DNA from: a virus
Taxonomy: Duplodnaviria; Heunggongvirae; Uroviricota; Caudoviricetes
Virus record (IMG/VR): IMGVR_UViG_2574180275_000003
Strand: one strand, 5' to 3'
Length of the DNA: 28,980 nt
Shown here: positions 665 to 18,292 of the stretch, piece after piece
How the letters are laid out: the number at the start of each line of letters is the position of its first letter
Position numbering within the stretch: position 1 is the first letter of the stretch
Translations under genes and position numbers: made by a program
Notes under the pieces: generated by a model
What the model saw: the letters and a program-made list of their open reading frames with translations, nothing else
Told to the model about the DNA's origin: nothing
Database searches by the model: none

Positions 665-1147
665 ATGTCAGGACCTCCGAAAACCCCGCCACGCCTGCAT
701 TTGATTCGAGGCAACCCCTCAAAGCGCCCCGTTAAAGACCACAAAAAAACCGCTAAAAAGGATGAAAAAGGTCTTCCTAAAATTCCGCAGCATTTAGGGG
801 CTCAGGGGAAGTACTGGTTCAGGCGAATGGCGGAAGAGCTGAATGCGGAAGGGATCATTTCTCAGCTTGATGCGCGTGCGCTCGAGTTGCTGGTGGAAGC
901 CTACACCGAATATCGGCATCACTGCGAAACACTCGATGTTGAGGGGTATACCTACCGCACGGAAACGCAGAGCGGTGATGTACTGATTAAGGCGCACCCC
1001 GCGGCGGCAATGAAAGCGGATGCCTGGAAGCGGATCCGGGCAATGCTTGCAGAGTTTGGTATGTCACCGGCAAGCCGGGCTAAAGTAAATATCGCCGGAC
1101 CGGATGATGTTGATCCGCTGGCGGAGCTTTTAAAAGCGAGAGACTGA
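665..1147 (+). CDS. terminase small subunit (P27-like family)
   Basis: 160 aa starting MSGPPKTPPRLHLIRGNPSKRP; stop overlaps the terL start (TGATG); paralogous to the second terS at 15038-15394. Confidence 0.8.
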   Translation: MSGPPKTPPRLHLIRGNPSKRPVKDHKKTAKKDEKGLPKIPQHLGAQGKYWFRRMAEELNAEGIISQLDARALELLVEAYTEYRHHCETLDVEGYTYRTETQSGDVLIKAHPAAAMKADAWKRIRAMLAEFGMSPASRAKVNIAGPDDVDPLAELLKARD

Positions 1148-2340
1148 TGGCAAAAGTGGCTGACGGGATCCGCTACGCCGAACGTGTTGTTGCAGGAGAA
1201 ATTGTTGCTGGCGAATTTGTCCGCCTGGCCTGCCAGCGTTTTCTTGATGATCTGAAGTACGGCGAAGAGCGGGGGATTTATTTCAGTGAACCCCGTGCGC
1301 AGCACATCCTGAATTTCTACAAATTTGTGCCTCATGTAAAAGGGGCGCTGGCAGGCCAGCCCATTGAGTTGATGGACTGGCATGTATTTATCCTCATTAA
1401 TATTTTTGGTTTTGTCATTCCGCTGGTCAATGAAGAGACCGGGGAAGTTGTCATGCGCAGCGATGGCAGCGGACGTCCGGTGATGGTGCGCCGGTTCCGG
1501 ACGGCGTACAACGAAGTCGCCCGTAAAAACGCAAAATCAACTCTGTCATCGGGTATCGGCCTGTATATGACGGGGGCAGATGGTGAAGGCGGAGCTGAGG
1601 TGTATTCAGCCGCAACCACGCGTGACCAGGCCAGAATCGTGTTTGAAGACGCCAAAAATATGGTCAGAAAAGCCCGGTCGACACTCGGGCGGTTGTTTGA
1701 TTTCAACAAGCTGGCGATTTACCAGGAGCAGAGCGCATCAAAATTTGAACCGCTTTCTTCGGATGCAAACAACCTGGATGGTCTGAACATCCACTGCGCC
1801 ATTATTGATGAGCTGCATGCACATAAAACTCGTGACGTGTGGGACGTTCTGGAAACGGCAACCGGTGCCCGTCTGCAGTCCCTTTTATTTGGTATCACCA
1901 CGGCAGGGTTTAACAAGGAAGGGATTTGTTACGAGCAGCGTGATTACGCCATCAAGGTATTGCGTGGCTATAACAGCGACGTGGAGGGCGCGGTAAAAGA
2001 CGACTCCTACTTTGCGATTATTTACACCCTCGATGAGGGAGATGATCCGTTTGATGAAACGGTCTGGCAGAAAGCGAATCCCGGCCTGGGCATCTGTAAA
2101 CGCTGGGATGATCTGCGTCGCCTGGCGAAAAAAGCGAAAGAACAGGTCTCTGCGCGGGTGAATTTTTTTACCAAGAAAGTAACATCACGCCGTAACAACA
2201 GTGCGACCTGTCCTGATTTTTTTAGTAACCAAATGAAAGAAAAAGATTTTTTCTTGTTCGTCGTTTTTGTTTTTTCTGGATGGTTCTGGCTGTTTTCATC
2301 ATTTGTGTATTGCACTGTGTATTGCAAAAACGGGTTATAA
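1147..2340 (+). CDS. terminase large subunit, N-terminal portion; ORF interrupted near 2172-2175 by the integrated element, last ~55 codons are read-through into element DNA
   Basis: Residues 1-342 align with the N-terminal half of the intact TerL at 15378-17039 (PHVKGALAGQPIEL / PHVKGAMRGSPIEL, ARKNAKST / PRKNAKST, RDQARIVFEDAK / RDQARIVFDDAR). After ...ARVNFFTK the translation becomes low-complexity (FLFVVFVFSGWFWLF) and the matching C-terminal half is found at 17561-18292. Confidence 0.8.
   Translation: MAKVADGIRYAERVVAGEIVAGEFVRLACQRFLDDLKYGEERGIYFSEPRAQHILNFYKFVPHVKGALAGQPIELMDWHVFILINIFGFVIPLVNEETGEVVMRSDGSGRPVMVRRFRTAYNEVARKNAKSTLSSGIGLYMTGADGEGGAEVYSAATTRDQARIVFEDAKNMVRKARSTLGRLFDFNKLAIYQEQSASKFEPLSSDANNLDGLNIHCAIIDELHAHKTRDVWDVLETATGARLQSLLFGITTAGFNKEGICYEQRDYAIKVLRGYNSDVEGAVKDDSYFAIIYTLDEGDDPFDETVWQKANPGLGICKRWDDLRRLAKKAKEQVSARVNFFTKKVTSRRNNSATCPDFFSNQMKEKDFFLFVVFVFSGWFWLFSSFVYCTVYCKNGL
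2168..2174. repeat. attL core (TTACCAA), left junction of the element
   Basis: Same 7-mer recurs at 17556-17562; in both copies ACC falls in the same terL codon phase (2170-2172 and 17558-17560). Confidence 0.6.
2305..2325 (+). promoter_or_regulatory. integrase arm-type binding repeats (left end)
   Basis: Tandem GTGTATTGCACTGTGTATTGC about 130 bp inside the left core and 20 bp upstream of int; near-identical copy at 17460-17480. Confidence 0.5.
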
Positions 2341-2345
2341 ATCAC

Positions 2346-3554
2346 ATGGCGCTAAACAAACTGAGCGATAAAAAACTTCGTTCCCTGCTTGGGCGCAGGA
2401 GTGAGAGGCAGGAAACCATCGCTGATGGTAACGGGCTTTCGGTACGGGTCAGTAAATACGGATGTGTTAGTTTTGTTTTCTTTTACAGACTGGCGGGAAG
2501 GGGAACCGCGCCCATCTGGCTGACACTTGGAAAATATCCTGATCTGAGTCTCAAATCAGCGAGAGAGATGCGCGATCAGTGTCGAACCTGGCTTGCGGAG
2601 GGCAGAGATCCACGGATTCAGATAAAAATTGAACGGGAAGCCACCTTGCAACCTGTTACCGTTCGTGAGGCACTTGAATACTGGCTTGATAATTATGCAA
2701 TGGATAAGCGTAGGGGAGCAGAACATATCAGGCAGTGCTTTGGTAAACATATTTATCCGGTGATTGGTCATGTACCACTTAGTGATTGCTCTATATCTAT
2801 GTGGATCAAGTGTTTTGACAAAATAAAAAAAGTAGCACCTGTACAGGCCGGAGCTTTGTTGCGTATATCAAAACAGGCGCTTAAATTTTGTAGGGTAAGA
2901 AAATACGCGATTAGTCATGAAATTGATGATCTTGAGGTCTGTGATGTGGGAAAAAAGTCTGCGCGAAGAAGCAGGGTTTTAACAGATGATGAAATCAGAG
3001 ATTTATGGCGAAGTATTAATACTGATTATGACAATCACGAATTATCATATGAAAACCGAATTATTTTACGTTTCCTGGTAGTTTTTGGTTGTCGACTGTC
3101 AGAAGTATTACTGTCGTCCTGGGTAGAGTGGGATTTTGATAAGAAATTATGGCGCGTTCCCGCTGATCATAGCAAAAATGGCAGGGAAATAATCAGACCG
3201 ATTCCTGATGGCATGTTTAACTGGTTAGTTACGTTAAAAAAAATAACAGGTAACAAAGAAAATGTGATTGGGTTTGATATGCGTCAGTGTACGGCAAGCG
3301 TAACTATCGGTAAGACATGGAAAAGGATGAAACACTCGGAAAAATGGACGGCGCATGATATGCGAAGAGTGTTTGCCACAAAGCTAAGTGATCATGGTTT
3401 TGAACATAATGTGGTTGAACAGTTGCTTGGGCACACATTAGGCGGTGTTGCCGGGGTTTATAACAGAAGTCAGTATATGGACAGAAAAAAAGAAGCTATG
3501 AACTGGTGGTACGACTATCTGAATAAGCTAATTAGTGGTGACGGTAATGATTGA
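2346..3554 (+). CDS. int: tyrosine site-specific integrase, P4-like with N-terminal arm-binding domain
   Basis: Start taken at internal ATG 2346 (MALNKLSDKKLRSLLG...), the usual integrase N-terminus; C-terminus has HDMRR...LLGHTLGGVAGVYNRSQY (catalytic His/Arg/Tyr). The track ORF starts at 2280 inside the att region. Confidence 0.9.
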   Translation: MALNKLSDKKLRSLLGRRSERQETIADGNGLSVRVSKYGCVSFVFFYRLAGRGTAPIWLTLGKYPDLSLKSAREMRDQCRTWLAEGRDPRIQIKIEREATLQPVTVREALEYWLDNYAMDKRRGAEHIRQCFGKHIYPVIGHVPLSDCSISMWIKCFDKIKKVAPVQAGALLRISKQALKFCRVRKYAISHEIDDLEVCDVGKKSARRSRVLTDDEIRDLWRSINTDYDNHELSYENRIILRFLVVFGCRLSEVLLSSWVEWDFDKKLWRVPADHSKNGREIIRPIPDGMFNWLVTLKKITGNKENVIGFDMRQCTASVTIGKTWKRMKHSEKWTAHDMRRVFATKLSDHGFEHNVVEQLLGHTLGGVAGVYNRSQYMDRKKEAMNWWYDYLNKLISGDGND

Positions 3555-3768
3555 AATAGTTACGCGTGAAGAACTTGAAAATGATAAAACAATCGACAGG
3601 ATGATTAAGGAAGATGAATGTGCATGGTTAACAGCTCTTGGCAGGAGACACAGAGCATTACTTGAAAAGGAAGGAAAATTTCCACGGAAAATATGTATTG
3701 GCCCACAAACAAAAGTCTGGCGCTTATCTGAGGTGCTGGAATGGGTAAAGGGTGAATGGAAACCCTGA
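3547..3768 (+). CDS. alpA: AlpA-family transcriptional regulator / excisionase-like protein
   Basis: About 73 aa with ...LLEKEGKFPRKICIGPQTKVWRLSEVLEWV, the AlpA/Xis HTH pattern; start overlaps the int stop; followed by a terminator. Confidence 0.65.
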   Translation: MIEIVTREELENDKTIDRMIKEDECAWLTALGRRHRALLEKEGKFPRKICIGPQTKVWRLSEVLEWVKGEWKP

Positions 3769-3791
3769 ACTAAATTAAATGAGATATAATC

Positions 3792-3817
3792 AACCCGTCT
3801 TTTGGCGGGTTTTTTTA
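3792..3817 (+). terminator. Rho-independent terminator-like hairpin after alpA
   Basis: AACCCG-(8 nt loop)-CGGGTT followed by a T7 run. Confidence 0.5.
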
Positions 3818-3831
3818 TAGGTGATATTTTT

Positions 3832-4110
3832 ATGCAAAAATTTATTTATCCTACACCCGAAGAACGCATTCAGATTCTGAAAGATCATGGCGAACCGTAT
3901 GATCGCCGTATACGCGAACATGAGTGTGCCAATCGTACCGGGCTTTCAAGAAGCAGACGTTGGGTACTTGAACAGGAGGGAGCATTTCCTGCTCGTGCTC
4001 ATTTAGGGAAAGTGTCTGTTTCCTGGTTGCTCTCTGATGTGCTCTGGTGGGTTATGCATCCGCCAGGAGTAAAGGAAGTAAACAGCCCATACAAAAACGC
4101 CAATAAGTAA
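3832..4110 (+). CDS. second AlpA-like HTH regulator
   Basis: 92 aa from ATG 3832 (GGTGA RBS 7 nt upstream); contains TGLSRSRRWVLEQEGAFPARAHLGKVSVSWLLSDVLWWV, resembling the AlpA HTH region. Confidence 0.5.
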   Translation: MQKFIYPTPEERIQILKDHGEPYDRRIREHECANRTGLSRSRRWVLEQEGAFPARAHLGKVSVSWLLSDVLWWVMHPPGVKEVNSPYKNANK

Positions 4111-4118
4111 TTACCGAC

Positions 4119-4148
4119 AACCCCGCACCACGCAATGCGGGGTTTTTT
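4119..4148 (+). terminator. Rho-independent terminator-like hairpin
   Basis: AACCCCGCA-(7 nt)-TGCGGGGTT followed by TTTTTTG. Confidence 0.55.
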
Positions 4149-4167
4149 GTATGTGAGGTAGAAAGTG

Positions 4168-4746
4168 ATGAATAAAAATATTGCCGTGACGGGCAAGGGT
4201 GACGCACGTCATGTGAAAAAATTCTGTGATATTCGTGATCTGGTCGTTCTGCGCTTTGATGGCGTGGATGTTCGTGTGGTGTATCTAAACGGCGATCCGT
4301 GGTTTGTTGCAAAGGATGTTTGTGCTGCGCTGGAACTGACCAATTCGCGTACGGCGTTGCAGATGCTTGATGATGACGAAAAGGGAGTAAATTTAACTTA
4401 CACCCCCGGAGGAAATCAGAATATGAGCATTATCTCCGAGTCAGGTTTCTACAAACTAATAGCCCGCAGCCGCAAAGCAACGACGCCTGGCACATTTGCT
4501 CATCGTTTCAGTAACTGGGTATTCAGAAATGTGATACCGGGTATCAGAAAAACGGGGGCTTATGGTATCCCGTGGGGCGCATTACAGGATTTTTCCCGCC
4601 GCAAAGAGCAATACCAGATAAGTGCCAGTGAGAAGGGGAGGGAGCTACAGGCATGTAAGCGCAAAAAGCGTGAGCTGGAGGAAGAAGAAAAAAGGCTGAT
4701 ACGTGAATACCAGCCTGAGTTTTACTTTGGTGAGCGTATTCAGTAA
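4168..4746 (+). CDS. Bro-N domain protein (antirepressor-like)
   Basis: 192 aa; N-terminal RFDGVDVRVVYLNGDPWFVAKDVCAALEL...ISESGFYKLIARSRK matches the Bro-N pattern; GAGGTAG RBS 6 nt upstream of ATG 4168. Confidence 0.7.
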   Translation: MNKNIAVTGKGDARHVKKFCDIRDLVVLRFDGVDVRVVYLNGDPWFVAKDVCAALELTNSRTALQMLDDDEKGVNLTYTPGGNQNMSIISESGFYKLIARSRKATTPGTFAHRFSNWVFRNVIPGIRKTGAYGIPWGALQDFSRRKEQYQISASEKGRELQACKRKKRELEEEEKRLIREYQPEFYFGERIQ

Positions 4747-5032
4747 CCACACGCGGTGTTGATTATACGGTACATCGTGTTGACCGGGAAGCTACCCACC
4801 AGCAAGGCAAAATCTTCTGCTAAAAAATGACATATGGCCAGTCGTCCGGAAAGCATGAAATTTTACAAAAATGGAAAATGAAGATTTTTATTGTGCTGGT
4901 GGGTAAAAACAAAAAGCGCCCCGTTGCCGGAGCGCCCTTGCGAACAATTAACCTACTGCGCAAAAAATGAATCTGTGCGGGGGAATTATATCAACCGCGT
5001 GGAGAAGCGCCACAATTGCCGAATAACAGGCA

Positions 5033-5061
5033 AAACAAAGGCCACCCGCTACGGTGGCCCT
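5033..5061 (-). terminator. terminator-like hairpin for leftward transcription
   Basis: Perfect inverted repeat GGCCACC-cgctac-GGTGGCC at 5042-5061; on the minus strand it is followed by TTTGTTTTG. Confidence 0.4.
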
Positions 5062-5098
5062 TCAACACAAGCTACACGTTATCCCCAACGCATGAGCA

Positions 5099-5311
5099 TT
5101 ACCGACAATGCCACATTTGCGGCTGGTGGGCAATGTGATCAGTCAGATTTGGTTCGTTCCAAGGTTTGCAACGAGAGCTTTTCCTGTGCTCTTTAAGGAA
5201 TTGCTCAAGGGCAAAAGCACATGGCGCGAATCTTTCTGATTCATGCTCTATCTTTCTGCGCCGTCTTTTCCGTGTCGGTGATAATGTTTTGGTCAATTCT
5301 TTATCGGTCAT
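5099..5311 (-). CDS. hypothetical small basic protein (start at MTDKE...)
   Basis: 70 codons with AGGA 7 nt upstream of the ATG at 5311-5309; lies between the Arc-like gene and the minus-strand hairpin. No family recognised. Confidence 0.3.
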   Translation of the reverse strand: MTDKELTKTLSPTRKRRRRKIEHESERFAPCAFALEQFLKEHRKSSRCKPWNEPNLTDHIAHQPQMWHCR

Positions 5312-5368
5312 TGTGTTGTCCTGCATAGCAATGCGCCGTAATACCTTACACCACGGCGCTGGTGATGG

Positions 5369-5674
5369 TTATTCCTGCTCTTTGGCCTTGCGACGCTGGA
5401 GTTCTTCACGTGCGACGGTGACGAGCTGCCCGATCTCCTCGACAGCTTTGACTCCGATTTTTTCCACCTGCGCCAGCGCATCGAGCGAAGAAACCAGGGG
5501 ATTTTCTCCGCTTCCTTCTGCCTGGCGGCGGGCGATCTCACCGCGTACAGCCGTAACTATAAAATTCGCTTTAGTTTCCCCTGGCTGTAGGGATGCCTCA
5601 ATGCCACTCACTACTTCATGTGGAAATCTGGCATTCAGTTGCTGTGATTTATTGTTAACAGAACTCGTGGACAT
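5369..5674 (-). CDS. Arc/MetJ-type ribbon-helix-helix DNA-binding protein (candidate repressor of the element)
   Basis: Start at internal ATG 5674-5672 with GGAGGTG RBS; N-terminus ...QQLNARFPHEVVSGIEASL resembles the Arc beta-strand motif (FNLRWPREV); divergent from the rightward replication operon. Confidence 0.55.
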   Translation of the reverse strand: MSTSSVNNKSQQLNARFPHEVVSGIEASLQPGETKANFIVTAVRGEIARRQAEGSGENPLVSSLDALAQVEKIGVKAVEEIGQLVTVAREELQRRKAKEQE

Positions 5675-5717
5675 GTTTGCACCTCCGATTAATAACGGGA
5701 TGCAGTGTAATACAAAA

Positions 5718-5772
5718 GTGAATACCAAAAAAGACTTGAAATGGTATTCACCAAAATGTAATCTGAATACCA
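5718..5772. promoter_or_regulatory. operator-like inverted repeats in the divergent promoter region
   Basis: GTGAATACCA (5718-5727) and its reverse complement TGGTATTCAC (5742-5751), plus a third half-site TGAATACCA (5764-5772), 45-100 bp upstream of the Arc-like start. Confidence 0.45.
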
Positions 5773-5873
5773 CAAGGGCTGATACATGCAATTCAGCAAT
5801 TGAAACGACGAAGCCCCGCACTGTTGGAGCAGTAACGGGGCTTCTAACCAAACCGTTAACTGGAGTAACGATT

Positions 5874-6074
5874 ATGGCTGTAAGACAGCATACCCCACGA
5901 CTTGCGCACACACAAACGGTCTTTGTGTGGCGTTTTCTGGCACTAAGTGCCGGAGAATCTCAAATCGTCCACGTAACCGCCTGGACGGAACGCGAAGCGC
6001 GTAACCGTTGCCCGTCCGGTTGTGTCGCTGTATTCGCCGCCCGTATTCGTCAGGGGGTGCGCCATGTGCAATAA
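5874..6074 (+). CDS. Icd-like small protein (host cell division inhibitor-like family of P4-type elements)
   Basis: 66 aa from ATG 5874 (GGAG about 8 nt upstream): MAVRQHTPRLAHTQTVFVWRFLAL...TAWTEREARNRCPSGCVAVFAARI, matching my memory of Icd-like proteins. It is the 3' end of the long track ORF 5166-6074, whose 5' part is antisense to the Arc-like gene. Confidence 0.45.
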   Translation: MAVRQHTPRLAHTQTVFVWRFLALSAGESQIVHVTAWTEREARNRCPSGCVAVFAARIRQGVRHVQ

Positions 6075-6303
6075 AAACACGCCGGACGCAGCCGCCGAAG
6101 CCATCAAAACGCTAATGCACGCGCTGATTGATATTTCATGCACGGCAGCAACCGCAGAAAAACACATTACCAGAGAGCCGGAATATACAGGGGCGATAAT
6201 CCCGCATTCACTGGCATACGCACAGCTTACCGCTGATATGGCACTGAATGAGGCCAGGGCTATCCTGATTGCTGATTGTGAAAATGGGGGGGGTTATGCG
6301 TGA
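6064..6303 (+). CDS. hypothetical protein
   Basis: 79 aa from ATG 6064 (AGGGGGTG upstream); overlaps neighbours on both sides, suggesting operon coupling. Confidence 0.4.
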   Translation: MCNKNTPDAAAEAIKTLMHALIDISCTAATAEKHITREPEYTGAIIPHSLAYAQLTADMALNEARAILIADCENGGGYA

Positions 6304-6529
6304 TGATCGTTTTAATGCCCTGAAACAGGAATTTGATGGCGCACCGGAACATACAGGCGATGCGTTGTTATGCGTTGCCGACATGATGAAAGCCGCATTT
6401 TTTCTTATCAGTACCAGTGGCTACAGGTCAGAGGGTGTGGAGATTCTCAATATTGCGTCGGACTATGCGGAATATGTTGCAGAGGCGCGTTACAGAAGAA
6501 AATTCCCGGAGGATGTAAGCCATGGATAA
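6296..6529 (+). CDS. hypothetical protein
   Basis: 77 aa from ATG 6296 preceded by a G7 run; overlaps the previous stop. Confidence 0.4.
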   Translation: MRDDRFNALKQEFDGAPEHTGDALLCVADMMKAAFFLISTSGYRSEGVEILNIASDYAEYVAEARYRRKFPEDVSHG

Positions 6530-6665
6530 AATCCCTTTCGATGTTCTTATTCATTCTGAGAATGCATTAATCAGGGCGCTTGAATTAAAAACGGTACTGG
6601 ATGAATTAACCGAAAATAACACCGAGCGGGGGGGTATTTACTTTCTGCTTTCAGCACTCTGTTAA
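6522..6665 (+). CDS. hypothetical small protein (47 aa)
   Basis: ATG 6522 with GGAGGA 9 nt upstream, overlapping the previous stop; MDKIPFDVLIHSENALIRALELKTVLDELTENNTERGGIYFLLSALC. Below the ORF track size cutoff. Confidence 0.25.
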   Translation: MDKIPFDVLIHSENALIRALELKTVLDELTENNTERGGIYFLLSALC

Positions 6666-6735
6666 CCCCGGTTATTGATGAATTAAACGCGGTTATGGAA
6701 ATGCACGACAAGACCCGCGCAGAGGAATAAAAACC

Positions 6736-7050
6736 ATGAAAAAGAAAAATTCTGGCTTTACTGCCAGCGGCCTCCCTCGGCCTGAAATCCGCCCCGACGA
6801 TATTTTCAAAGATAAATACGGCGGACGAATAACGATAAAAACCGTTGACGATTTTCGCGTGACTTATATCCGCGAAGGTTATGCGCATCCCTGCGTGTCG
6901 TCTCATATGCGTTTTGAGAGTGAATTCACCCTGGTAAGCAAAGCACCACCAGCGAACTTAAGCGACATCGACAGAATCATGCGCGTTACAGGTATGGAAC
7001 GCATTAAGGCAGTACGTGAAATTATTCGTGAACGGGGAAAGGCAAAATGA
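6736..7050 (+). CDS. hypothetical protein (possibly DUF4222-like), coupled to the primase gene
   Basis: 104 aa; GAGGAA RBS 8 nt upstream; stop overlaps the primase start (ATGA). Family call is a tentative recollection. Confidence 0.45.
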   Translation: MKKKNSGFTASGLPRPEIRPDDIFKDKYGGRITIKTVDDFRVTYIREGYAHPCVSSHMRFESEFTLVSKAPPANLSDIDRIMRVTGMERIKAVREIIRERGKAK

Positions 7051-15394: not shown

Positions 15395-17039
15395 GTACGC
15401 AGAAGGCGTAAAAAACGGCAAAATTACGGCCTGTAAACGACTGAAACAGGCCGTTAAACGGTATTTTTCTGACCTTGAAAACCCCCTTTACACGTTCGAT
15501 CCGGAGGTCGTGGAGCGGTTTATTGCCTTTTCCAGGGTGTGTCCGCACGTAAAAGGCGCAATGCGCGGTAGCCCCATTGAGCTGGAGCCGTGGCAGCAGT
15601 TCGCCTTTGCGTGCATCCTGGGCTTTAAGGTTAAGGCCACCGGACGGCGCAAATACACCAGCGCATTCATTGAAGTGCCGCGAAAAAATGCCAAATCCAC
15701 GGTCGCCGCTATCCTGGCTAACTGGTTTCTGGTTATGGAAAACGGGCAGCAGGATATTTACACCGCCGCCGTGAGTCGTGATCAGGCGCGGATCGTGTTT
15801 GATGATGCGCGTCAGATGTGCCTTTTATCCCGACCGTTGCGAAAGCGGGTAAATATTCAGGCACACAAGGTGATACACCCGAAAACCAACAGCCTGTTAA
15901 AGCCACTGGCAGCAAAAGCGGCAACCATTGAAGGTACAAACCCGAGTCTTGCCATTGTGGATGAATATCACCTGCACCCTGACAACGGGGTTTATTCCGC
16001 GCTTGAACTGGGAATGGGGGCGCGTCCGGAGGGGTTATTATTTGCCATCACCACATCGGGGAGCAACGTTGTTTCAGCCTGTAAACAACACTACGACTAT
16101 TGCTGCCAGATACTGGATGGTGAAGAGGTGAACGAATCCATGTTCGTGCTGATTTACGAGCTGGATGATGAAAGCGAGGTTGACGATCCGGCGATGTGGA
16201 TAAAGGCGAATCCCAATATCGATGTTTCCGTCGATCGTGAAAAACTGGCCTCAACCATCCAGAAAGCGCGGGGTATTCCGTCGCAGTGGGTGGAAATGCT
16301 CACCAAGCGATTCAATATCTGGTGTCAGGGGGCCACGCCGTGGATGGGTAACGGTGCATGGGCGGAGTGCGCCGGAACGTTCGCGGAGGCGGATTTATAC
16401 GGGCAGGAGTGCTACGCGGGGCTGGACTTATCATCAACCAGCGATATTTCCAGCGTGTGCTATGCCTTTCCGGTCGGTAAAAAGATTATGCTGGTTTCCC
16501 GTCACTATCTGCCGGAATTTCAGCTACAGAACCCCGCCAATAAAAACCGCGCCATCTATCGCCAGTGGGTAAAGGCGGGCTGGATACGCACAACACCGGG
16601 TGACTGCATTGATTATGACCGTATCCGTGATGACATCATGGCGGATGCAGAGAATTTCAATATCAGGCTGGTGGGTTTCGATACATGGAACGCCACGCAC
16701 CTGAGGACGCAGCTACAGGGCGCAGGATTTGAGGTGGAGCCGTTCCCGCAAACATACCTTCGTTTCAGTCCGGCGGCGAAATCGTTCGAAGTTTTTGTTA
16801 ACCGGAAGGTGATTGTGCATCGTGGTGATCCGGTGCTGGCCTGGTCAATGAGTAATGTTGTGATGCAGAGTGACGCGAACGCCAATATCAAGCCGAACAA
16901 GAAAAAATCATCCAACAAGATAGACCCGAGCGTTGCGGCGCTGATGGCGTTTGGCACATTCCAGGCAGAACATGAGGAATTTGCATTCGATATGAGCGAC
17001 AGCCACAAAGAGCGGCTTGCGACGTTTGATGGTGTGTAA
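15378..17039 (+). CDS. terminase large subunit (intact)
   Basis: 553 aa; apparent TTG start at 15378 with GAGGAAGAGGA upstream, overlapping the terS 3' end; aligns across its whole length with the two prophage terL fragments. Confidence 0.9.
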   Translation: MTAWHEYAEGVKNGKITACKRLKQAVKRYFSDLENPLYTFDPEVVERFIAFSRVCPHVKGAMRGSPIELEPWQQFAFACILGFKVKATGRRKYTSAFIEVPRKNAKSTVAAILANWFLVMENGQQDIYTAAVSRDQARIVFDDARQMCLLSRPLRKRVNIQAHKVIHPKTNSLLKPLAAKAATIEGTNPSLAIVDEYHLHPDNGVYSALELGMGARPEGLLFAITTSGSNVVSACKQHYDYCCQILDGEEVNESMFVLIYELDDESEVDDPAMWIKANPNIDVSVDREKLASTIQKARGIPSQWVEMLTKRFNIWCQGATPWMGNGAWAECAGTFAEADLYGQECYAGLDLSSTSDISSVCYAFPVGKKIMLVSRHYLPEFQLQNPANKNRAIYRQWVKAGWIRTTPGDCIDYDRIRDDIMADAENFNIRLVGFDTWNATHLRTQLQGAGFEVEPFPQTYLRFSPAAKSFEVFVNRKVIVHRGDPVLAWSMSNVVMQSDANANIKPNKKKSSNKIDPSVAALMAFGTFQAEHEEFAFDMSDSHKERLATFDGV

Positions 17040-17120
17040 CGGAATGGATGAGAGAGGACAATGCTCATTTAATGGAATAAATTTTCAGTATTATCGGCAC
17101 CCACTTTCAGGGATGTTTTT

Positions 17121-17272
17121 GCGGGTTATTTGAGGACGGGGGCGGGTTATTTTGAATGTCTTGCGGGTTATATTCTGGCTGATATCTAGATACGTTGTTT
17201 TTTAACGCATTGATATTAAAGAGTAAAAAATACTTAGCACGCGAAGATAACCCGCTAACCCGCATAACCCGC
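17121..17272. repeat. iteron cluster 2 (same 9-mer as cluster 1), candidate second cis-acting replication site
   Basis: GCGGGTTAT at 17121, 17142 and 17163 (21-bp spacing), AT-rich spacer, then ATAACCCGC / TAACCCGC / ATAACCCGC contiguous at 17247-17272. Confidence 0.6.
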
Positions 17273-17459
17273 ACTGTTTTGTATATATATACGAAAAATT
17301 GCATTCAGGGGGGGGATCGAAATTTCTACTGCCTCTTATCTCTTTGAGTGCTCACCTCGTCAGATTGTTACACACAAGAAATAAAAAATGCTTCGCGATG
17401 GTAGGTCGAATCACTGTATCAAAAAACGGTGTGTATCAGCATTAAAACAATACAGATAC

Positions 17460-17480
17460 GTGTATTGCGCTGTGTATTGC
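17460..17480 (+). promoter_or_regulatory. integrase arm-type binding repeats (right end)
   Basis: GTGTATTGCGCTGTGTATTGC, same motif and orientation as 2305-2325, about 75 bp inside the right core. Confidence 0.5.
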
Positions 17481-17555
17481 TTGATGATTTATAAAGACTG
17501 TTTTTTCATGTTAAACGATTGATATACAGGTGATTTTAAAAAACTTGAAATATTC

Positions 17556-17562
17556 TTACCAA
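17556..17562. repeat. attR core (TTACCAA), right junction of the element
   Basis: Identical to 2168-2174; the downstream codons AAA CAC ATG AAT GTG continue the terL frame. Confidence 0.6.
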
Positions 17563-17566
17563 ACAC

Positions 17567-18292
17567 ATGAATGTGTGGGTAACAGCAGAGTCTGCCTGGA
17601 TGGACATGATTAAGTGGGATAAGTGCGAATACATTGCCCCACGACATGAGCTGAAAACGTATCCCATGTGGGTCGGCGTTGACCTTGCTCATAAGATTGA
17701 TATCTGTGCGGCGGCAAAACTCTGGCGAACGGATAACGGGCATGTTCATGCCGATTTTAAATTCTGGCTTCCGGAAGGACGGCTGGAACGATGCTCGCGG
17801 CAGCAGGCAGAACTTTACCGGAAGTGGGCGGAGATGGATAAGCTGATTCTGACGGATGGTGATGTTATCGATCATGCTCAGATAAAAAGTGACTTACTGG
17901 AATGGATTGGTGGTGAAAACCTCAGGGAACTGGGATTTGACCCGTGGAGCGCGATGCAGTTCAGCCTGGCACTGGCTGAAGAAGGGATACCGCTGGTGGA
18001 GGTTCCGCAGACGGTTCGCAATCTGTCAGAGGCCATGAAGGAAACGGAATCACTGGTCTATGCCGGGCGTTTCCATCACAGCAATCATCCGGTCATGAAC
18101 TGGATGATGTCTAACGTTACGGTAAAACCGGACAAAAACGACAATATCTTCCCGAATAAATCCACGCTGGAAGCCAAAATCGACGGCCCTGTTGCGATGT
18201 TTACAGCAATGAGCCGGATGCTGGTCAATGGTGGTGAACCGGAGCTGGATCTGTCTGAACATCTGGTCAGCGTGGGCATCCGCTCGCTTTAA
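17567..18292 (+). CDS. terminase large subunit, C-terminal portion (nuclease domain); frame is open from the att core at 17558
   Basis: Aligns with the C-terminal half of the satellite TerL ([16 protein letters not shown] / KRFNIWCQGATPWMGN onward); together with 1147-2172 it makes one ORF of about 585 codons. Confidence 0.8.

Follow-up and report, generated by a model that had tools for sequence, protein, structure and literature searches.

The window analysed here, a stretch of 28,980 nucleotides of a Caudoviricetes virus (IMG/VR record IMGVR_UViG_2574180275_000003), contains the large-terminase gene (terL) of a helper prophage, split in two by an insert of about 15.4 kb. An open reading frame (ORF) at 1147–2340 encodes the TerL_ATPase domain and the opening part of TerL_nuclease, and a second ORF at 17567–18292 covers TerL_nuclease profile positions 64–283; Pfam scans of both fragments place the break at profile position 64. 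When the insert is removed in silico, in-frame fusion of 1147–2174 to 17563–18292 yields an unbroken TerL of 586 amino acids. An 800-nt segment of this rebuilt empty site is 100% identical to an annotated intact 'terminase large subunit' gene in at least 24 complete Escherichia coli genomes, and it is covered to at least 80% in 905 genomes. Because the rebuilt junction matches intact terL at 100% identity, the boundaries of the insert are exact. The right end of the element adjoins a terL 3′ pseudogene, annotated as 'terminase TerL endonuclease subunit', in 34 complete genomes; the left end, with the integrase gene int, is present in 36 genomes, with a match of 100% in strain GF31, and the E. 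coli 042 locus has the same layout and architecture. We consider it very probable that the interval comprises the attL and attR junctions of a helper-embedded phage-inducible chromosomal island (HE-PICI), inserted in terL codons 341–343 (F-T-K) of an HK97-like prophage, and that the doubled motifs near its two ends are, as predicted, arm sites of the element's integrase (Int).

Judged by its genes, the insert is a satellite of the capsid-forming PICI (cf-PICI) type, combining a length within the 10–18 kb range with an integrase, a regulator, a replication module and capsid and packaging genes of its own. The genes run in the order int, two alpA, Bro-N, DUF4222, DUF927 primase, SSB and PerC, followed by the late genes for an HK97-type major capsid protein, prohead protease, portal, head completion, HNH, TerS and TerL; by Pfam scans and ORF strands, they are co-oriented with the interrupted helper late operon. 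As a cf-PICI, the element would be expected to make small capsids of its own and to rely on the tails of its helper. No tail or lysis families were found among the 17 insert ORFs scanned by Pfam, some small ORFs lying outside that scan. Int matches both PF13356 (Arm-DNA-bind_3, E 1e-17) and PF00589 (Phage_integrase, E 1.4e-18), in line with the N-terminal arm-binding domain that an earlier interpretation of the letters of the window (the sequence-only reading) had assigned to it. Residues R250, K277, H337, R340, H363 and Y372 are invariant in the homologue alignment and, by our reading, would correspond to the tyrosine-recombinase catalytic set.

Elements of this kind have been described before. 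Tommasini, Mageeney & Williams (NAR Genom Bioinform 2023, PMC10111431) catalogued 491 HE-PICIs at 14 sites in prophage late genes and showed excision experimentally for one of them, Eco567.11capE. They reported a motif, tgTGTATTGCantgTGTATTGCa, that stands in the same orientation on both sides of the attP centre, 81 ± 2 bp from it on the upstream side and 132 ± 2 bp on the downstream side, and called this doubled motif unique to HE-PICIs. Supplementary File 1 of the same paper lists a group A_Terminase_1_246 from E. coli with the att identity 'ttaccaa' and a size of ~15 kb, which includes the E. coli 042 element (FN554766.1/2250958-2235714, Eco33.15). The window element shares with this group the terL codon region (Terminase_1 profile position ~246), the att identity, the ~15-kb size, the doubled motif on both attP arms and the order of zones (integration with AlpA, Bro, replication, late), and the printed attL and attR sequences match the window junctions on the satellite side. 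Window core distances compare well with the published ones on the P′ side (133–134 against 132 ± 2 bp), and on the P side, at 78–79 bp, they lie just outside 81 ± 2 bp, the reference points being undefined in the paper. The Int of the E. coli 042 HE-PICI (locus L001) is 99–100% identical to the window Int in all three domains, and those of other motif-bearing HE-PICI groups are 45–53% identical to it overall; on these identities, the window Int falls within the HE-PICI clade. The window element is a further instance of group A_Terminase_1_246, in a genome that probably postdates the 2023 survey, and its features were already known, since the terL site, 'ttaccaa' and the doubled motif are all in the 2023 paper. 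With the site, the repeats and the biology known since then, the present analysis mainly confirms the sequence-only reading; it adds comparative support for the view that the doubled motif is read by the Int arm domain, and shows that sister clades, among them the abundant fis PICIs, have doubled motifs of their own at the same place upstream of int.

The gene set of the window element is also that of the cf-PICIs described by Alqurainy et al. (2023, bioRxiv 10.1101/2022.09.08.507074). Unlike the window element in its prophage terL, however, their prototype EcCIEDL933 occupies a chromosomal site near roxA/pepT; the two Int arm domains share only 52% identity, and EcCIEDL933 carries the motif GGTGTAGTTAAT instead of the half-site TGTATTGC of the window. 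That paper gives six chromosomal attB sites and makes no mention of a prophage late gene (10.1101/2022.09.08.507074). Prophages within prophages in E. coli (PMC8112680) are likewise nested phage-derived elements, in that case full prophages that insert into prophages. A satellite residing inside a helper packaging gene would force an order of events, as it must leave before the helper packages DNA, and the arrangement would amount to cis-regulatory parasitism between mobile elements.

The crossover core and the doubled motif

The 7-bp block TTACCAA was found at both ends of the insert, at the positions that the sequence-only reading had named (Table 1). By itself this 7-mer is at chance frequency, with five copies in the window against 3.2 expected, and its significance therefore rests on position. 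Joining the two ends of the element reconstructs an attP junction of the form GAAATATTC-TTACCAA-GAAAGTAAC, and strand exchange would take place within the 7-bp block common to attP and attB. Strain KFu019 carries TCACGAA in place of TTACCAA at each of the two junctions, attL and attR (locus L206, ~694–700; locus L210, 2524–2530), while the element is near-identical and its junction flanks are unchanged on the element side; strain Z1324 (locus L208) has the same variant at attR. Both substitutions are synonymous in terL, so that F-T-K is kept. For tyrosine recombinases, the overlap must match between the partners and is not itself a recognition element, and the KFu019 variant fits a 7-bp overlap of this type. 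Variant identity blocks also appear in the published att table (PMC10111431).

Alignment of the two TerL proteins bears out the further proposal that the core occupies the F-T-K codons of the helper gene and that the terL of the satellite differs there. The host codons TTT ACC AAA align to CTC ACC AAG in the satellite, such that TTACCAA faces TCACCAA, a match at six of the seven core positions. Because the satellite terL differs at this one core base and at all flanking bases, insertion of the element into its own terL is unlikely, an argument that the 2023 authors made for the capE element (PMC10111431).

The repeat claimed for both ends of the element, the 21-mer GTGTATTGC(A/G)CTGTGTATTGC, is present there in the same orientation and occurs exactly twice in the window; 100 shuffles gave no match even when three mismatches were allowed. 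Exact GTGTATTGC 9-mers number four in the window, and all of them are half-sites of the motif. The P′ motif starts 133–134 bp from the core centre and ends 20 bp before the int ATG; the P motif ends 78–79 bp before the core centre, and in the reconstructed attP the two motifs lie 233 bp apart from start to start. A related third site, proposed near position 17429, fared less well. Its sequence, TGTGTATCAGC, is present one base away from the position given, but a role as a binding site finds no comparative support: other site groups have no counterpart of it in their P arms, and the invariance of TGTGTATCAGC among the E. coli copies is uninformative, as nearly all of the surrounding ~200 bp are equally invariant. 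An inverted ACAATACA at 17448–17455, directly upstream of the P-arm motif, is the reverse complement of TGTATTGT and matches 7/8 of a half-site; such a match was estimated to be at about chance level, and the candidate was rejected. A search of 2100–2450 gave neither a sigma-70-like promoter nor a terminator, and autoregulation of int through the P′ motif is unsupported because no such promoter lies near it.

These features suggest how the element would move. The satellite's own P4-type tyrosine integrase would have inserted the ~15.4-kb element into the large-terminase gene; while integrated, the satellite would block production of helper TerL, and precise excision would restore terL. The attP of the excised circle would hold two co-oriented pairs of TGTATTGC half-sites, with a spacing of 12 bp within each pair—the P pair ~80–100 bp upstream of the core and the P′ pair ~133–155 bp downstream. 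The four half-sites most likely bind the N-terminal arm domains of four Int protomers, and by bridging the arms to the core, this binding would assemble an intasome as in the lambda-type heterobivalent integrases; AlpA probably sets the directionality of recombination. Lambda Int, KplE1 IntS and P4 Int likewise pair an N-terminal arm-binding domain with a C-terminal catalytic domain, and lambda-type systems also have an overlap of ~7 bp identical in both partners and repeated arm sites flanking the attP core. In KplE1, the P′ sites adjoin the int start, as they do in the window. In contrast to the lambda-type systems, the window has exactly two adjacent half-sites per arm, all co-oriented and all of them predicted sites, and the targeted gene belongs to another mobile element and not to the host.

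The arrangement recurs well beyond the window. A scan of IMG/VR for TGTATTGC-N4-TGTATTGC returned more than 120 loci, 46 of which hold an integrase homologue (45–100% identical) in the same locus as the motif, and in nearly all loci with a callable full-length int the doubled motif ends 12–53 nt before the int start codon. For loci with two co-oriented copies, the crossover was predicted at the window offsets, which place it 135 nt ahead of the P′ motif and 98 nt past the P motif. These offsets recovered an att identity block to within 5 bp in four of the seven other two-copy loci, the remaining three having weak blocks or none. The recovered blocks have other cores: AACCCAAGCA, which agrees with the 10-bp block length published for the capE site, TAAAGGCGAT and a weaker 6-bp CTGGTG. 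The doubled motif is invariant across site groups, though the arm flanks cannot be aligned. Elements whose Ints are only 45–53% identical to that of the window keep the motif at the same offsets around cores of their own. The excised form was also sought in viral contigs as two doubled motifs 200–226 bp apart. Its sole match was an unrelated 12-bp tandem array, an accidental pattern match to a long array of the unit TAGTGTATTGNN (locus L002, 5290–5860) on the 218-kb contig IMGVR_UViG_3300031344_000002.

Table 1. Positions in the window of the interrupted terminase gene, the attachment-site elements and selected satellite features.
Feature	Position	Strand	Basis
Helper prophage terL 5′ fragment, ending in the attL core	1147–2174	+	Pfam TerL_ATPase and TerL_nuclease profile positions 2–64
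attL core TTACCAA, identity block and presumed 7-bp overlap region	2168–2174	+	Junction reconstruction; published att identity 'ttaccaa'
Body of the putative helper-embedded capsid-forming PICI-type satellite, ~15.4 kb	2175–17555	+	Pfam scans; same architecture in E. coli 042
P′ arm doubled motif GTGTATTGCACTGTGTATTGC, a pair of half-sites with a 12-bp spacing	2305–2325	+	Exact motif search; published motif
Tyrosine integrase, 402 amino acids, N-terminal arm DNA-binding domain	2346–3554	+	Pfam PF13356 and PF00589
AlpA-family protein 1, candidate excisionase/regulator	3535–3768	+	Pfam Phage_AlpA, E 2.5e-9
AlpA-family protein 2	3802–4110	+	Pfam Phage_AlpA, E 7e-10
Satellite terL codons equivalent to the target, CTC ACC AAG; flanks unrelated	16299–16307	+	Pairwise TerL alignment, 33% identity
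TGTGTATCAGC, proposed third site, unsupported as a binding site	17430–17440	+	5/8 ungapped match to TGTATTGC
P arm doubled motif GTGTATTGCGCTGTGTATTGC, in the same orientation as the P′ copy	17460–17480	+	Exact motif search; kept in all P arms examined
attR core TTACCAA	17556–17562	+	Junction reconstruction; published att identity 'ttaccaa'
Helper prophage terL 3′ fragment	17563–18292	+	Pfam TerL_nuclease profile positions 64–283

Candidate readers of the doubled motif

Covariation with the motif class favours the arm domain of Int as the protein module that would read the repeats. Among motif-bearing elements, Int residues 1–92 are 60–78% identical (60–76% to the window Int in other site groups); residues 93–402, which make up the core-binding and catalytic parts, are 40–51% identical outside the window's own subclade. 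The window and capE elements, which have the same motif and different cores, have arm domains that are 72% identical and remaining portions that are 44% identical. Two clades that share a fis core and have different arm motifs are 40% identical over the arm domain and 55% identical over the remainder of Int.

The same relation extends to more distant integrases. Among 80 Int relatives from other genera, nearly all have a doubled, 12-bp-phased motif within the 110 nt upstream of int, typically ending 15–50 nt before the int start codon; in the loci of other clades these motifs were located upstream of int at about locus position 9900–10000 (L126–L205) or ~2270–2300 (L123 and L124). The sequence of the motif goes by Int clade and reads TGTATTGC, GGTGTATCA, TGTATAAACA, GGTGTAGTC, GTGGGGTAA or GGGGTACAT. 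The elements with TGTATAAACA are the fis PICIs, in which ~140 nt separate the motif from the fis terminus TTAGTTCATGCCGTA upstream of it, and GGGGTACAT is found in Shewanella, Vibrio and Photobacterium in up to six copies; in EcCIEDL933, GGTGTAGTTAAT occurs twice upstream of int. The description 'unique to HE-PICIs' accordingly holds for the sequence of the motif only, because sister clades share the arrangement upstream of int. Each clade of this PICI integrase family seems to have its own 12-bp-phased doubled arm motif that changes with the arm domain, as if in a swappable 'arm code', a pattern missing from the 2023 paper with its description of the motif as unique, and such clade-specific motifs could help to predict or re-engineer the attP sites of this integrase family.

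A separate observation concerns the fis site. In three Shewanella loci (L194, L195 and L202) and one locus from an unclassified bacterium (L198), a doubled GGGTACAT stands on both sides of the fis-terminus core, the two copies being 232–234 bp apart (~9706 and 9939 in the Shewanella loci; 9716 and 9948 in L198). This spacing is essentially the 233 bp of the reconstructed attP of the window, and so attP-like an arrangement on a chromosome suggests tandem or remnant elements.

Taken together, the fixed core offsets and the way in which the motif class follows the Int arm domain support the reading of the repeats as arm sites, and from them we infer binding by Int itself. Several observations weigh against this reading or against excision of the element. 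Locus L154 has an arm domain 65% identical to that of the window Int and yet carries TTGAACCGAC repeats. Tandem direct repeats spaced by about one helical turn are also typical of the sites of excisionases, or recombination directionality factors (RDFs). The exact attP junction had no hits in viral and metagenome contigs (searched as a 32-mer) or in genome contigs (searched as a 23-mer). Finally, as binders of the motif the 2023 authors suggested Int arm domains, AlpA as an alternative, or an unknown protein (PMC10111431).

The strongest competing explanation is that the doubled TGTATTGC motifs bind an excisionase or regulator of the AlpA family, or another DNA-bending accessory protein, and thereby control directionality or int transcription. 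Phased direct repeats, both in att arms and near int promoters, are common targets of winged-helix RDFs, an example being TorI on attL of KplE1; in the window, two alpA genes directly follow int, the P′ copy ends close to the int ATG, and the possibility is among those listed by the HE-PICI authors. We nevertheless regard it as unlikely. AlpA identity between the window and motif-bearing elements of other site groups is 41–52%, and within the TGTATTGC class as a whole it spans 38–67%, compared with 45–51% to the AlpA of EcCIEDL933, an element with a different motif. Because similarity within the class is no higher than to EcCIEDL933 AlpA, AlpA does not follow the motif class, whereas the Int arm domain does, with 72–78% identity within the class against 45–64% outside it. 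Two half-sites on each arm, all pointing the same way and each pair at a constant distance from the core, would also suit the four arm domains of an Int tetramer better than an RDF, which in some known cases acts on one arm.

Probable mobility of the element, and neighbouring features

The sequence of the element further leads us to infer that it is currently able to recombine: both cores and all four half-sites are perfect, int is intact, and empty sites outnumber occupied ones ~25-fold (905 versus 34–36 genomes). An opposing account would make the element a fixed, immobile remnant, its repeats and cores being left over from an ancient insertion and passed down vertically along with the prophage. 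In its favour, the attP junction was not found in the public contig collections scanned, and the E. coli copies are 95–100% identical, which could reflect common descent. This account is nonetheless improbable given an intact int with invariant catalytic-type residues, perfect attL, attR and half-sites, and near-identical prophages with a 100% identical empty target that are ~25 times commoner than occupied ones. The core variant of KFu019, present at both junctions, also argues against it. Moreover, published helpers lie at different chromosomal loci (potB and zinT|mtfA), the published attR alignment has one element, off-A_246, inserted off target at DUF333_yeaN, and the sister group 11capE excises on induction (PMC10111431). 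The idea that chance accounts for the repeats and the 7-mer, with the true ends of the insert lying elsewhere, can be practically dismissed: TTACCAA alone is indeed at chance frequency, but the pair of 21-mers had no match in the shuffles, the boundaries rebuild an intact gene at 100% identity, and many unrelated site groups show this motif again at the same offsets.

The reading frame of the truncated helper terL (terL′) stays open through the whole P′ arm and both half-sites, and its stop codon (2338–2340) leaves a gap of 5 nt to the int ATG. In E. coli 042 (L001, 4212–5549), a run of T that is one base longer puts terL′ in frame with int, and the RefSeq annotation gives a 445-aa integrase there; a 'terminase/int fusion' is flagged in the 2023 paper (PMC10111431). 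Translation of the helper late gene might conceivably drive integrase synthesis by coupling or fusion, timing excision and terL repair to the late operon as a self-timed cis switch, but this idea is doubtful, and we rank the proposed 'arm code' as more likely to be true. As a general feature of HE-PICIs, such coupling was rejected, since the late-gene frame of the other groups mostly stops 130–150 nt (range 40–231) before int; in a few other HE-PICI loci, it passes the int ATG in another frame. With most other groups stopping far earlier, the 5-nt arrangement is specific to this site group and may be due to chance.

Two further features of the satellite lie apart from the attachment sites. A gene for a PerC-family transcriptional activator is found at 9807–10097 (Pfam PF06069, E 3e-35); proteins of the PerC family are associated with the control of virulence in pathogenic E. 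coli. Exact GCGGGTTA units occur 14 times in the window, with 0.8 copies expected, and 12 of the 14 fall into two clusters, each with units in both orientations: one at 9191–9313, just downstream of the DUF927 primase gene, and one at 17121–17272, just downstream of the satellite terL. The clusters are candidates for replication-origin iterons and a second ori-like or packaging-related site, an arrangement that we take to resemble P4 ori/crr. The region 17163–17405 is common, at 82–86% identity, to elements that lack the att/int module of the window, and chromosomal PICIs with different int modules also have the GCGGGTTA iteron region downstream of terL.

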